Of a DNA stretch of 7,448 bases, positions 2,289 to 5,877 are shown piece after piece. The stretch lies in IMG/VR virus record IMGVR_UViG_2645728091_000018. One strand, given 5' to 3'. Position 1 is the first letter of the stretch. Each line of letters begins with the position of its first letter. This stretch comes from a virus (Duplodnaviria; Heunggongvirae; Uroviricota; Caudoviricetes). The notes under the pieces are model-generated. The model did no database searches. It was not told the DNA's origin and saw nothing but the letters and a program-made list of their open reading frames with translations. The position numbers and the translations under genes are program-made.

Positions 2289-2792
2289 ATGTTTGATTAC
2301 CAGACCTCTAAACATGCGCACTTTGATGCGGCTTGCCGAGCATTTGCAATTGAGCACAATCTGGAAGATGTGGCCGCTGCCGTTGGTATGAGGCCGCAGA
2401 TCCTGCGCAACAAACTGAACCCAGCGCAACCGCACCGCCTGACCTGTGATGAGCTTTTGGCTATCACGGATTACACAGAAGATGCGCGTTTACTTGATGG
2501 GATGTTAGGTCAGATTAACTGCCTTCCATCCGTGCCGGTAAACAATGCTACTGAAGCCAACATGCAACTGTGTGCACTTAGCGCCACTGCATGTGTGGGC
2601 GCGATTGCTGGGGAAGCCGTATCAACTGGTCATATGACCGCAGCCCGCCGTACTCAAATTCTGGATCGCGCCCGCGATGCAATCCGTAGCTTATCCGTGC
2701 TGGCTTATACAGTTGAAAGCCGTATTCACTCTGCGCCGGTTCTGGCTGCTGCGGTGGATCTGGTCACAACCAACGCTACCGGCCTGATGTGA
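2289..2792 (+). CDS. cII: CII-like lysogeny-establishment regulator (186 CII family)
   Basis: 167 aa; N-terminus MFDYQTSKHAHFDAACRAF...LRNKLNPAQPH closely resembles 186 CII as I remember it. GGGAGAGG RBS 8 nt upstream; position after apl matches 186 gene order. Confidence 0.85.
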   Translation: MFDYQTSKHAHFDAACRAFAIEHNLEDVAAAVGMRPQILRNKLNPAQPHRLTCDELLAITDYTEDARLLDGMLGQINCLPSVPVNNATEANMQLCALSATACVGAIAGEAVSTGHMTAARRTQILDRARDAIRSLSVLAYTVESRIHSAPVLAAAVDLVTTNATGLM

Positions 2793-2801
2793 GGGAACAC
2801 C

Positions 2802-2975
2802 ATGAAAGCGTTTGTCACTTACCTGAAAAAAGAATCACCAGCCATGCAGTTGCCGAGTGGTTCAACGGGCTGGATAGAACTGCCGAACGGTCAGCGCTGG
2901 AACCCTGGCCACATGTACAAATTCAATGGCCAGCAGCCGCGCCGCCCGTGGTGGTGTCGTCTGATGGGGTTATAG
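2802..2975 (+). CDS. Small hypothetical protein (57 aa), not in the ORF track; occupies the 186 fil-like position
   Basis: ATG at 2802 with GAGGGA RBS 5 nt upstream, overlapping the cII stop. Translation MKAFVTYLKKESPAMQLPSGSTGWIELPNGQRWNPGHMYKFNGQQPRRPWWCRLMGL, stop TAG 2973..2975. Codon usage is host-typical, whereas the overlapping track frame (2789..2983) has rare AGG/AGA/ATA codons and a GTG start with no SD. Confidence 0.5.
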   Translation: MKAFVTYLKKESPAMQLPSGSTGWIELPNGQRWNPGHMYKFNGQQPRRPWWCRLMGL

Positions 2976-2983
2976 GGGGCGTT

Positions 2984-3412
2984 ATGGCGATTAGCCAGGA
3001 ACAGCAAAAGCGCGGGCTGGAGCATTTAAAACAGATCCGCCGCAAATACTTCAGCGAAAGCAGTGAGGCCGCTGAATGGTGGGACAACTTAACACCAGAG
3101 TGGCGGGGTGTAGTGCTTCATGCTGCTGCGGTTACATCTGGTACTGGGGCATTTAAAGCCCACTTAAGCAAGTGCTGCTGGCGGGAGCTTTATGAACGCC
3201 TGGGCTATCGGGACATGATTCAACTGCGCCAGGGCATTTCACGGGCGCGGTTAACGTTTGAAGGTTTCGGCAGTTTACGTGACAGCGATTTTTCAAAGCG
3301 CACCGCGAACCGCCCGATCAAAAAGGCACATCCAATTTATAGCAGTAGCGGGGTGCAGATGGTGATCGCGCCTCATATCGTCCATAAGTTCCAGCAACAG
3401 GGGAATCACTAA
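2984..3412 (+). CDS. Hypothetical phage early protein (142 aa)
   Basis: ATG at 2984 (MAISQEQQKRGLEHL...) with a GGGGG run just upstream; same frame as the distal part of the track ORF 2789..3412. Stop TAA overlaps the next start (TAATG). No recognisable catalytic motif. Confidence 0.6.
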   Translation: MAISQEQQKRGLEHLKQIRRKYFSESSEAAEWWDNLTPEWRGVVLHAAAVTSGTGAFKAHLSKCCWRELYERLGYRDMIQLRQGISRARLTFEGFGSLRDSDFSKRTANRPIKKAHPIYSSSGVQMVIAPHIVHKFQQQGNH

Positions 3413-3813
3413 TGACCATTATTTCCGTTGAGGGTAAATCGTTGGGGGCTGAACTGGCTGTGTGGGGTGTCCCGCATAACTACGCTGTAGCGTTTGCAGC
3501 GAAAAGTACCAGTAAAAATGGCCGCATCGCTTTGCATCCGTTCTTCTTCAATGACACTGAACACATGACAAATCCGCGTCACTGGCTGGCTATCAATGCC
3601 GCTTTCTGGTGCTGCGTGTATCGCGAAGCGGAAAGCAAAGAAGCCCAGATAGAAGCGCTGGCGGGGATTCGTGCAATTTTCTATACAGCCGGGGCGCTGG
3701 GTGTTGGCGAGATAAAAGCGCTGATCCAGGAGTGGTGGCGGACAACCTATGAGCTTCACCTGATTCCGGCACCGAACTACTCAGCCGCCACAGTACAACC
3801 CACTTTTCACTAA
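3412..3813 (+). CDS. Hypothetical phage early protein (133 aa)
   Basis: ATG at 3412 overlapping the upstream stop, AGGGGAA 7 nt upstream; intact 133-aa ORF. No recognisable motif; function unknown. Confidence 0.6.
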   Translation: MTIISVEGKSLGAELAVWGVPHNYAVAFAAKSTSKNGRIALHPFFFNDTEHMTNPRHWLAINAAFWCCVYREAESKEAQIEALAGIRAIFYTAGALGVGEIKALIQEWWRTTYELHLIPAPNYSAATVQPTFH

Positions 3814-3830
3814 TTAACAGCCTGAATTTT

Positions 3831-3866
3831 TTGGCCACGGTTCAAGTGGCCGGGGATTCTTTTGCC
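3831..3866 (+). terminator. GC-rich hairpin followed by a U-rich tract; possible weak intra-operon terminator or attenuator
   Basis: GGCCAC (3833..3838), 7-nt loop, GTGGCC (3846..3851), then GGGGATTCTTTTG. Sits in the only sizeable intergenic gap (3814..3880) of the early operon. Stem is short and the T-run is interrupted. Confidence 0.25.
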
Positions 3867-3880
3867 TTAAGGAAACCAAA

Positions 3881-4114
3881 ATGCACATGACACGTCAGGA
3901 TTTACCCGCAACAAAATCAGGCACCGACCTGCTGGCCATGCTCACCAAAGCCACGCAGGAAGGTAAAGCCGCAGCTGCTGATCTGTGTTCCACCCGTCTG
4001 GATAAGTTAGCCACTCATGCGGCCAATGAAGGTTTAAGCGCAACGGAAATCGTTGAGTTAATCCGCGAAGAAGCCGCAGCGATTTGCAGCAAAGGAGGTG
4101 CGGCATGGAATTGA
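3881..4114 (+). CDS. Small hypothetical Ala-rich helical protein (77 aa); possibly like the small orf80-type proteins of P2-like phages
   Basis: ATG at 3881 with AAGGAAA upstream; stop overlaps the start of the exonuclease gene by 10 nt. Family assignment is memory-based and unverified. Confidence 0.5.
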   Translation: MHMTRQDLPATKSGTDLLAMLTKATQEGKAAAADLCSTRLDKLATHAANEGLSATEIVELIREEAAAICSKGGAAWN

Positions 4115-4701
4115 AAACTAAGAAATTGCAGTCTTCTATCAGTCAGCTAGCACAACAGTGGCTTGACGATGATCGCCTATTTATTGATACCGAAACCACG
4201 GGGTTGGGTGATGATGCAGAAATAGTAGAAATATGCATCATTGATAGCCATGGATTTATTCTGCTCAACACGCTTGTAAAACCCACTAAGCCTATTCCTG
4301 ATGAAGCAATTGCCATTCATGGGATCACAAATGAAATGGTCGCTTTTGCGCCGGCCTGGACTGATATATGCGGGGCAGCGGAGGAACTATTTCGGCGCTT
4401 TGGGTTTGTTATCTATAACGCCGATTTTGATCTCCGGTTAATTCGTCAGACCTACGCATTGAATGGAAGGCCTTCTGAAGGTGTGCCATGGATGCTTGCT
4501 GCTAATTCTGTTTGCGCAATGAAACTTTATGCAGAGTATCGCGGCGAGCCGGGAAAATATCACGGTTATAAATGGCATAAATTAGTTGACGCTGCTGCGC
4601 ATGAAGGAGTTGTGATCGAGGGGCAGGCACACCGTGCTTTAGCTGATTGCAAAATGACATTAGGTGTCATCAAAGCTTTAGCGCAAGGCGGTGCAAAATG
4701 A
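4105..4701 (+). CDS. DnaQ-like 3'-5' exonuclease (DEDDh family)
   Basis: Exo I motif FIDTETTGL, Exo II YNADFDL, Exo III HRALADC (H-x4-D) all present in the translation. ATG at 4105 with AAGGAGGTG RBS 5 nt upstream; the track start at 4084 is TTG. Stop overlaps the next start (ATGA). Confidence 0.88.
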
Positions 4702-5027
4702 CAATCAAAACCCACACGATAAAGATTGCGCCAAAATACCTTGATGCTGTGGTGGCTGGCCAGAAAAAGGCCGAGCTGCGTAAAAACGATCGCGGGTATA
4801 AAACCGGTGATGTTCTTTCACTGTGCGAGTGGAAGCACGGAAAATACACCGGGAGAGAGTGGGCGGCGGTTATCACCCATGTTTTGCCTGTAAATGAAAT
4901 TATCGCTGATACCGAAAACTGGGCGGTTTTGTCCATCCGTTCACTGTCGCCGCTTGAAGTGCTGGAATACATCATTTCAAACGGTGTCACTGAGGCGTTA
5001 GCAGGCGGAGGTCAATATGGCCGTTAA
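4698..5027 (+). CDS. ASCH / PUA-like domain protein (DUF3850-like), 109 aa
   Basis: [40 protein letters not shown]... matches the N-terminal pattern I recall for DUF3850/ASCH proteins. ATG at 4698 overlaps the exonuclease stop; the track start at 4647 would give a 55-nt overlap and is less likely. Confidence 0.7.
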
Positions 5028-5877
5028 AACTCCGCTTAAATGGGTGGGCAGCAAAGCCCGCCTTATGCCTAAGCTGCGTTCGCACCTTCCAGAAGGTAAA
5101 CGCCTGGTTGAACCGTTCGCAGGTTCCTGCGCCGTCATGATGAATACGGATTATGACGAGTATCTGATCGCAGATGTGAATCCTGATCTGGTTAATCTTT
5201 ATAAGGCGATGGCGTATCACACTGATGTGCTGCTGAATGAGGTGGAGATCCTGTTTTCTGCCGGTTCGTTAGGTGATGAAGAAAGCCGTGCCGTTTTCTA
5301 TTACGCAGTGCGTGATGCTTTCAATCTTTCTGGTGGTAAGGCTGGTTCTGAATCCGTTGAAAATGCTGCGCGTTTCCTGTACCTGAATCGCCACTGCTTC
5401 AATGGCCTGTGCCGGTATAACCGCCGAGGCCAGTTCAACGTCCCGTTCGGTAAGTACAAAAAGCCTTATTTCCCCGCTGATGAAATCCGCGCCTTTGCTG
5501 AAAAAGCGAAACGCGCAACGTTCATTACTGCCCACTATTCAGAAACACTCGATTTGGTTCGGGACGGGAATGACGTTGTTTACTGTGATCCGCCTTATCT
5601 GACTGATACCGCCAATTTCACCGCTTACCATGAACGTGGCTTTTCGCACATGGATCAGGGGCGGCTGGCGCGTAAGCTGCGCCGTCTGGCTGAACGTGGG
5701 ATTCCGGTTGTCGCGTCAAACAGCGATCTGGAAATGGTTCATTACCTGTACGCCGGATTTGAAGCCGTAAAGGTAAATGCGCCGCGTAGTGTTGGTGCGG
5801 CAGCTGCAAGCCCGAAAATGGCGGCGGAGCTGATTCTTAAATGGCCTTTACCGGCGACTCATGAGGCCAGCGCATGA
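5017..5877 (+). CDS. dam: Dam-family DNA N6-adenine methyltransferase (probably GATC-specific)
   Basis: Motif [10 protein letters not shown] and motif IV VYCDPPY, plus long colinear similarity to E. coli Dam as I recall it ([52 protein letters not shown]). GGAGGT RBS 5 nt upstream; start overlaps the ASCH gene by 11 nt. Confidence 0.93.

Follow-up and report, generated by a model that had tools for sequence, protein, structure and literature searches.

A putative one-domain relative of phage P2 gpB and its conserved neighbour in the early operon of an ESSI-2-like prophage

Introduction

Which proteins are encoded by a P2/186-like prophage in that short interval of the early operon which holds dhr in phage 186 and the replication gene B in phage P2? 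The question is raised by a stretch of 7,448 nucleotides (nt) from the IMG/VR virus record IMGVR_UViG_2645728091_000018, hereafter called the window, which is the early control and replication region of an ESSI-2-like prophage of the P2/186 type (Peduoviridae). Here the interval is filled by two plus-strand genes, orf142 (2984-3412, ATG start, 142 amino acids) and orf133 (3412-3813, ATG start, 133 amino acids). A preliminary description made from the DNA letters had delimited the same two open reading frames (ORFs) as co-oriented, coupled early genes behind cII and had suggested host-takeover or anti-defence functions for them. The positions were confirmed and coincide with the RefSeq calls, and the placement in the early operon between cII and gene A, with overlapping stop and start codons, likewise stands. 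The finding reported here is a one-domain protein assigned by profile comparison to the gpB superfamily, together with a conserved neighbour; the phage is regulated in the manner of 186, and the two genes lie in its gpB/dhr slot. This is not a new kind of system and not evidence of an anti-defence function.

Similarity of orf142 to the P2 replication protein gpB

Neither orf142 nor orf133 matches any family of Pfam, NCBIfam or PADLOC. The earlier remark that no motif can be recognized in either protein does not hold for orf142, for which a clear family motif and a probable distant relationship to gpB were found. The protein matches phrog_33841 ('unknown function') with an expectation value (E) of 7.9e-40, and in a hidden Markov model (HMM) search of 1.84 billion representative sequences only 39 proteins match the orf142 family at E≤1e-3, including shorter orf142-like forms of 117-158 amino acids from Yersinia, Hafnia and Pantoea with a clear common motif. 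The conserved core extends over approximately residues 16-107 with the motif W..Lt.ewRGVVLHAA...C.W.EL....m.QLR.GI.RaR..F.gFG.L...DF and is followed by a variable C-terminal tail. In the AlphaFold2 model the protein is all-helical (predicted local distance difference test score, pLDDT, 70.8). Two proteins of odd length among the listed orf142 homologues (P0100 and P0102) carry unrelated families.

The relationship to gpB becomes apparent with profiles that include distant members. Profile A5, which contains orf142 and its distant members, aligns with the gpB family profile A4 (45 sequences) at E 2.9e-4 over 71 columns. Protein gp08 of the Vibrio phage PV94, encoded directly 3' of cII, matches both gpB (E 1e-4) and the orf142 family (E 2e-6), and the gp08 family of 19 sequences aligns with A5 with a probability of 97.2% and E 2.8e-11. 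After merging of the orf142 and Vibrio profiles, the alignment to the gpB family reaches an hhalign probability of 87.7% and E 3.4e-6 over 81 columns, with residues 16-107 of orf142 in register with residues 14-101 of gpB, while a second, weaker alignment covers gpB residues 76-151. PHROG families bridge the groups, among them phrog_14551 (gpB 1.2e-11 in two stretches, P0335 6.7e-6, Yersinia gp07 1.4e-5) and phrog_5349 (gpB 1.7e-5, P0335 1.4e-8, P0330 3.2e-8), and gpB and the members of the orf142 family match the bridging PHROGs 14551, 5349 and 602 in equal regions of the profiles. The protein gp07 of Yersinia phage vB_YenM_324, which matches the orf142 profile with an hhalign probability of 98.4% (E 8e-15), bears the depositor's label 'replication protein GpB', the basis of which is not stated; it is the only record in which an orf142 homologue is named GpB.

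When the merged HMM was run over 1155 six-frame ORFs from 14 loci, the gpB ORF of P2 was the sole extra match (E 1.9e-6), and none was found in 186. Real gpB sequences score a median of 18.1 bits and a maximum of 27.8 bits with this HMM, compared with 13.7 bits for the best of 9000 shuffled control sequences and at most 3 bits for reversed ones. The gpB HMM A4 found nothing at E≤1e-3 in 90 orf142 loci, the window protein itself having been checked against the gpB family via A4, and sequence searches of the PDB with the profiles A1 (orf142 before broadening), A3, A4 and A5 yielded nothing significant.

Taken at profile level, these comparisons place orf142 outside the gpB family proper (PF26815/phrog_235), of which it is not a member, and make it very probably a remote homologue of P2 gpB. 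It is classified here as a one-domain member of a gpB-like domain superfamily comprising phrog_235, 14551, 602, 5349 and 33841, with which it shares a domain of about 80 residues in consistent register and an early-operon position ahead of gene A. The preliminary description had proposed searches with HMMs and predicted structures, of which the former connected orf142 with gpB and neither gave an informative relative for orf133. It had also held that clear homology to a characterized structural or housekeeping phage protein would speak against its own proposal; the similarity to gpB comes near to this, although it is remote rather than clear.

Within the gpB sequence itself, two tandem copies of an orf142-like domain are probably present, because phrog_14551 is matched in two stretches and the merged profile aligns twice. 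In P2 gene B (1959-2459 of locus L007) the motifs ERERLTVCFHAQL and SQRRTLFMHAGL correspond to each other as in an internal duplication.

Several of the families have in common a C-terminal histidine, which hardly varies in orf133 (..FH, window 3808-3810), occurs in 13 out of 31 aligned members of the orf142 family (..NH and similar; window orf142 3407-3409), and is also found in P2 gpB (..YLH, L007) and in PV94 gp08 (..DFH; L005, 2311-2730).

orf133 forms a family of its own

The second protein of the pair matches phrog_3935 ('unknown function') at E 3.4e-52. Its homologue in ESSI-2 is 68% identical, that in Yersinia phage vB_YenM_324 (gp08) 50% identical, and Vibrio PV94 gp10 is matched with an hhalign probability of 96.4%. 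The AlphaFold model is confident (pLDDT 91.2, predicted template modelling score 0.86) and begins with a small N-terminal α/β unit (residues 1-40); residues 41-54 form a conserved loop, HPFFFNDTEH, and residues 55-116 a helical bundle at the C-terminus. With this model no match at E≤1e-3 was obtained by Foldseek in BFVD, no Pfam family was matched by any of 47 members of the orf133 family, and the orf133 profile found no relative among PDB sequences. A relationship as a diverged gpB/orf142 domain, or as the C-terminal half of gpB, was considered and found no support (E 0.15-0.33). orf133 thus represents a conserved family of its own, predicted to be well folded and without known relatives.

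The aromatic and cysteine-rich string FWCCVYRE, to which attention had been drawn previously, is indeed present (residues 65-72, nt 3604-3627) and lies within the modelled helix 55-72. Trp66, Tyr70, Arg71 and Glu72 are conserved in the family but Cys67 and Cys68 are not; since the two cysteines vary to Ser, Ile, Val, Thr and Ala, a metal or redox site at this pair was rejected.

Both reading frames are genuine genes

A candidate Shine-Dalgarno sequence (AGGGGG) is located 4 nt 5' of the ATG of orf142, and a Shine-Dalgarno-like AGGGGA is found at 3399-3404 within the 3' end of this gene, ahead of orf133. As read from the sequence, the stop codon of orf142 and the start codon of orf133 on the plus strand have one base in common (TAATG, 3410-3414), and because of this shared base translational coupling from orf142 to orf133 is plausible. 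The RefSeq/PGAP annotation and the ESSI2_ev015 record contain the identical two gene calls, each as 'hypothetical protein'. Homologues fall into 107 protein clusters for orf142 and 93 for orf133, all from Enterobacterales, and the alignments of both families are almost free of insertions and deletions. The median ratio of nonsynonymous to synonymous substitution rates (dN/dS) amounts to 0.07 for orf142 (n=74 related IMG/VR loci) and 0.077 for orf133 (n=68), as compared with 0.125 for fil. Because the ORFs, the RefSeq calls, the homologue families and the dN/dS values agree, both genes are regarded as genuine coding genes under strong purifying selection.

An alternative GTG start, which would extend orf142 to 207 amino acids (2789-3412), was discarded: the additional N-terminus overlaps fil in another frame, the homologues all begin with MAIS or MAIN, and RefSeq gives 142 amino acids. 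An antisense ORF of 116 amino acids (3409-3759) and the antisense coding sequences annotated in Cronobacter phage ESSI-2 were likewise rejected as coding, as conservation and low dN/dS reside on the plus-strand frames. In the RefSeq record of ESSI-2 (L006, NC_047854) coding sequences overlapping with or antisense to the homologues of orf142 and orf133 are annotated between 2386 and 3402 (gp37, gp38 and gp39), and no fil gene is called in the gap 2386-2611; these oddities are probably annotation artefacts.

The slot between fil and the DUF2732 gene

The upstream edge of the interval is formed by an ORF of 57 amino acids on the plus strand (2802-2975) between cII and orf142, which matches PF10893 (Phage_186_Fil) at E 3.5e-10 and for which RefSeq gives the name 'phage filamentation protein Fil family protein'. 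By its sequence it is assigned as a bona fide gene of the Fil family of cell-division inhibitors; the preliminary description had overlooked it. The downstream edge is marked by a terminator-like hairpin on the plus strand (3828-3866; GGCCACGGTTCAAGTGGCC core followed by TTCTTTTG, located by a consensus scan), which together with a T-rich tract lies directly 3' of orf133 as a putative terminator, and by the plus-strand DUF2732 gene (3881-4114, PF10809, E 2.8e-12), which serves as a synteny marker. According to the 186 record, the terminators of the tR1 region are anti-terminated early.

The resulting order cII-fil-orf142-orf133-hairpin-DUF2732 can be set beside cII-fil-dhr-tR1-DUF2732 in 186 and cox-orf78-B-putative terminator-DUF2732 (orf80) in P2, both as annotated. 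Hence the slot between fil and the hairpin with the DUF2732 gene contains dhr in 186, the essential replication gene B in P2, and orf142 and orf133 here. In the 186 record fil is described as blocking cell division and dhr as inhibiting host DNA replication. The locus had been taken as equivalent to fil/dhr as a whole; it does correspond in position to dhr of 186, but because fil is present separately the pair fills the post-fil position only, and kinship with Dhr was not detected. Neither orf142 nor orf133 matches PF10893, and hhalign comparisons of Dhr with the orf142 family (E 0.14) and with the orf133 family (E 0.35) gave probabilities below 1%; on these results homology of either protein to Dhr or Fil was rejected. 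Pfam gives no support for P2 orf78 as a Fil homologue.

Co-occurrence and distribution

An orf133-like gene directly follows the orf142-like gene in 87 of 90 loci. No gpB is encoded in any of these 90 loci, and neither orf142 nor orf133 in any of 80 gpB loci, all of which are near-identical to P2 and thus of limited diversity. The cassette of fil, the pair and the DUF2732 gene is also present in Yersinia, in Hafnia-type and in metagenomic distant relatives, and position and order of the pair are kept from Enterobacterales to the P2-like phages of Vibrio. The interval had rightly been called a variable early-operon slot as far as its content is concerned, which differs between genera, but its position is fixed across these groups.

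Each gene is also found without the other. In the loci L011 and L012 the order is apl-fil-orf142-like-gene A, so that the shortest early operon seen keeps an orf142-like gene, and no orf133-like gene was detected in either of them. In L011 an ORF of 141 amino acids behind the orf142-like gene was judged non-coding, being an overlapping low-complexity frame without a match to the orf133 profile. In a third locus (L013) the order is fil-orf142-like-DUF2732, and an orf133-like gene was not detected. Conversely, 59 Vibrio loci possess an orf133-like gene, and in 37 of them no protein with a gpB-like domain was detected within 4 kb. In these 37 loci (among L174-L232; e.g. L209, 2750-4402) the orf133-like gene is preceded by a gene with an ASCH domain and by two small genes unrelated to the pair, namely an ORF of 97 amino acids and one for a phrog_16078 protein of 136 amino acids; no link was found that would make either of these two a hidden gpB-like protein.

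In public annotation both proteins are 'hypothetical', apart from the single GpB label in the Yersinia record. Literature searches returned no paper on the orf142 or orf133 families and none mentioning Yersinia phage vB_YenM_324.

Proposed function and rival explanations

The P2 record annotates gpB as essential and as needed for lagging-strand synthesis. It reportedly binds E. coli DnaB and frees P2 from the need for DnaC; it is also said to be able, as lambda P is, to inactivate DnaB. PMC12661323, citing Odegrip et al. 2000, counts P2 gpB among the helicase loaders of bacteria and phages. By way of the shared domain, orf142 would likewise bind the host replicative helicase DnaB and would help to place it on the strand that is displaced once gpA nicks the origin. 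Lagging-strand synthesis could then start without sole reliance on the host loader, and strong DnaB binding could depress host replication as a by-product, which would leave some room for host takeover. orf133 would be an accessory factor in the same early step of DNA replication, a role that is proposed because the gene is coupled to orf142 in nearly all relatives and that constitutes the weakest step of the mechanism. Overall, the assignment of the pair to the replication machinery, as a gpB relative and its partner and not as anti-defence cargo, is judged to be evenly balanced between right and wrong. For the action of orf142 on DnaB, as suggested by its profile relationship, the chances are about equal either way, and cooperation of orf133 with orf142 is regarded as doubtful; a joint function is not established because each gene also occurs alone. 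It is unlikely that the two form a split P2-type loader in which the orf142 domain captures DnaB and orf133, a structurally new partner without a relative in PDB or BFVD, replaces the second domain of gpB. If this were true, there would be a hitherto unrecognised type of loader that is widespread among the P2-like prophages of Enterobacterales and Vibrio, and gpB itself would have arisen by duplication of an orf142-like domain.

Several observations weigh against a role of the pair in replication. Phage 186 replicates with neither protein, so that a loader is not obligatory for this type of replicon. Before broadening of the orf142 profile the similarity to gpB is weak, with E 0.57 for the single P2 gpB sequence against A1 and E 0.069 for the gpB family A4 against A1. 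PF26815 is carried by none of the 107 orf142 homologues, as opposed to every gpB homologue listed. In architecture, one domain with a poorly conserved tail in orf142 faces approximately two domains within the 166 amino acids of gpB. The Foldseek search of BFVD with the orf142 model (pLDDT 70.8) did not return gpB, whose presence in that database was not checked, and its best E of 3.9 is at chance level. Furthermore, orf133 shows no relation to gpB or orf142, and either gene can exist apart from the other, as seen in L011-L013 and in the 37 Vibrio loci.

The pair might alternatively be accessory cargo for host takeover or anti-defence, i.e. dispensable 'moron-like' genes, in which case the likeness to gpB would reflect shared ancestry of a protein-binding helical domain. 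Such cargo would be in keeping with a slot whose content differs by genus (dhr, B or this pair), with the host-directed annotation of the 186 occupants (cell division for fil, host DNA replication for dhr), with the lack of a curated-family match for either protein, and with orf133, for which fold searches gave no informative match and which is also found where orf142 is lacking. On the other hand, the distant relative indicated by the profiles is a replication protein, the dN/dS values are about 0.07, position and order are fixed from Enterobacterales to Vibrio, and an orf142-like gene is retained even in the shortest early operon (L011). The search of PADLOC-DB at E≤1, the models of which represent defence and not anti-defence proteins, gave nothing for either protein of the pair, nor for Fil and the DUF2732 protein. 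We consider cargo improbable; the anti-defence function suggested earlier finds no pointer in the data, given the zero PADLOC matches, the strong purifying selection and the fixed position.

A functional analogue of Dhr, in which orf142 binds DnaB by way of its gpB-like domain but sequesters it and depresses host replication without loading the helicase, and in which orf133 modulates or neutralises this effect, is quite improbable. The pair does occupy dhr's own slot directly after fil, P2 gpB can reportedly inactivate DnaB as lambda P does, and a coupled two-gene layout would suit an inhibitor with its modulator, but there is no sequence relation to Dhr, and inhibition and loading are compatible with each other, so that this explanation overlaps with the replication role preferred here. 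Very improbable is a regulatory or toxin-antitoxin-like pair, for example a factor for transcription or antitermination that acts on the hairpin downstream, or else an addiction module. It would account for two small overlapping genes placed directly 5' of a terminator-like hairpin, in a region for which the 186 record notes early anti-termination. However, no matches to helix-turn-helix, toxin-antitoxin or defence families were obtained for the two proteins, each gene is found alone, which is unusual for toxin-antitoxin pairs, and the homology signal points to gpB.

Comparison with known systems

Among the systems compared, P2 gpB resembles orf142 in its operon position, after the small gene that follows cox or cII and before the terminator and the DUF2732 gene, as well as in the helical domain of about 80 residues that the two are predicted to have in common. 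The gpB motif ...YN.M.ERERLTVCFHAQL...(F/W)EE(M/L)...ER..(L/V)..AI.ELR.AF can be compared with ...WD.LTPEWRGVVLHAAAV...WREL...M.QLRQGISRAR.TF of orf142, and the two proteins are mutually exclusive in the loci examined. They differ in that gpB, of about 166 amino acids, apparently contains two copies of the domain, whereas orf142 has one copy within 142 amino acids and a variable tail of its own; moreover, no orf133 follows B in P2, while orf142 is nearly always followed by it. Dhr of 186 is encoded in the same place, with fil as the immediate neighbour on one side and tR1 and the DUF2732 gene on the other, but is only 66 amino acids long, and orf142 and orf133 are two to three times larger and without detectable similarity to it. 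The counterpart of 186 Fil is the window's own PF10893 gene, neither protein of the pair being a Fil homologue.

True homologues of orf142 and orf133, whose genes also lie between cII and gene A of the early operon, are gp08 (phrog_5349) and gp10 (phrog_3935) of Vibrio PV94 as well as gp07 and gp08 of Yersinia vB_YenM_324. PV94 differs from the window by an unrelated gp09 between gp08 and gp10.

To our knowledge, none of the classical loaders is less well understood than gpB, and the family annotated for it is a narrow one; the gpB profile found no relative among the sequences of solved structures in the PDB. Other phage helicase loaders are small proteins, too, by which the replicative helicase of the host is captured for the phage replicon (PMC12661323; PMC11087808); such loaders come in many kinds and have repeatedly been swapped into bacterial genomes by viruses (PMC11087808). 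With lambda P, SPP1 G39P, T4 gp59 and DnaC-like proteins orf142 would share the role, as proposed by analogy, and differs from them in having neither a match to a solved structure nor an ATPase domain.

If the link to gpB holds, a gpB relative with one domain, labelled only 'hypothetical protein', is present in a whole branch of the P2/186-like prophages, namely in those of Salmonella, E. coli, Citrobacter, Enterobacter, Klebsiella, Cronobacter, Yersinia, Hafnia, Pantoea and Vibrio. It would widen the gpB family and suggest its tandem-duplication architecture, and it would offer a testable explanation for a possible difference between 186 itself and other phages regulated in this manner, namely in their dependence on the host loader. 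Local annotation is corrected in that fil is present and the pair is placed in the dhr/B slot.

Genomic surroundings

The window is identical to the IMG/VR contig IMGVR_UViG_2648501498_000023, and Escherichia phage ESSI2_ev015 (Peduoviridae, Quadragintavirus) is 98.8% identical to it over 1.4 kb. Upstream of fil, the minus strand encodes int (297-1346) and cI (1339-1917); the apl/cox gene (about 2037-2258) follows after cI and precedes cII (2289-2792, PF06892). Between the DUF2732 gene and gene A, which begins at 5874 and continues onward, the plus strand carries genes for a DnaQ-like 3'-5' exonuclease (PF00929), a DUF3850/ASCH protein and a Dam methylase (4084-5877). This early-operon set of exonuclease, DUF3850/ASCH and Dam genes is unlike that of P2 and also unlike that of 186.

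Cargo at the edges of the operon varies among related prophages, and these edges are the more typical variable 'moron' positions. A P-loop NTPase gene lies between int and cI in E. coli LH13-b (L001, 256-2040), a gene with a putAbiC domain is found 3' of gene A in L013 (9032-9853), and in ESSI2_ev015 a serine acetyltransferase gene adjoins int (L002, 92-718).

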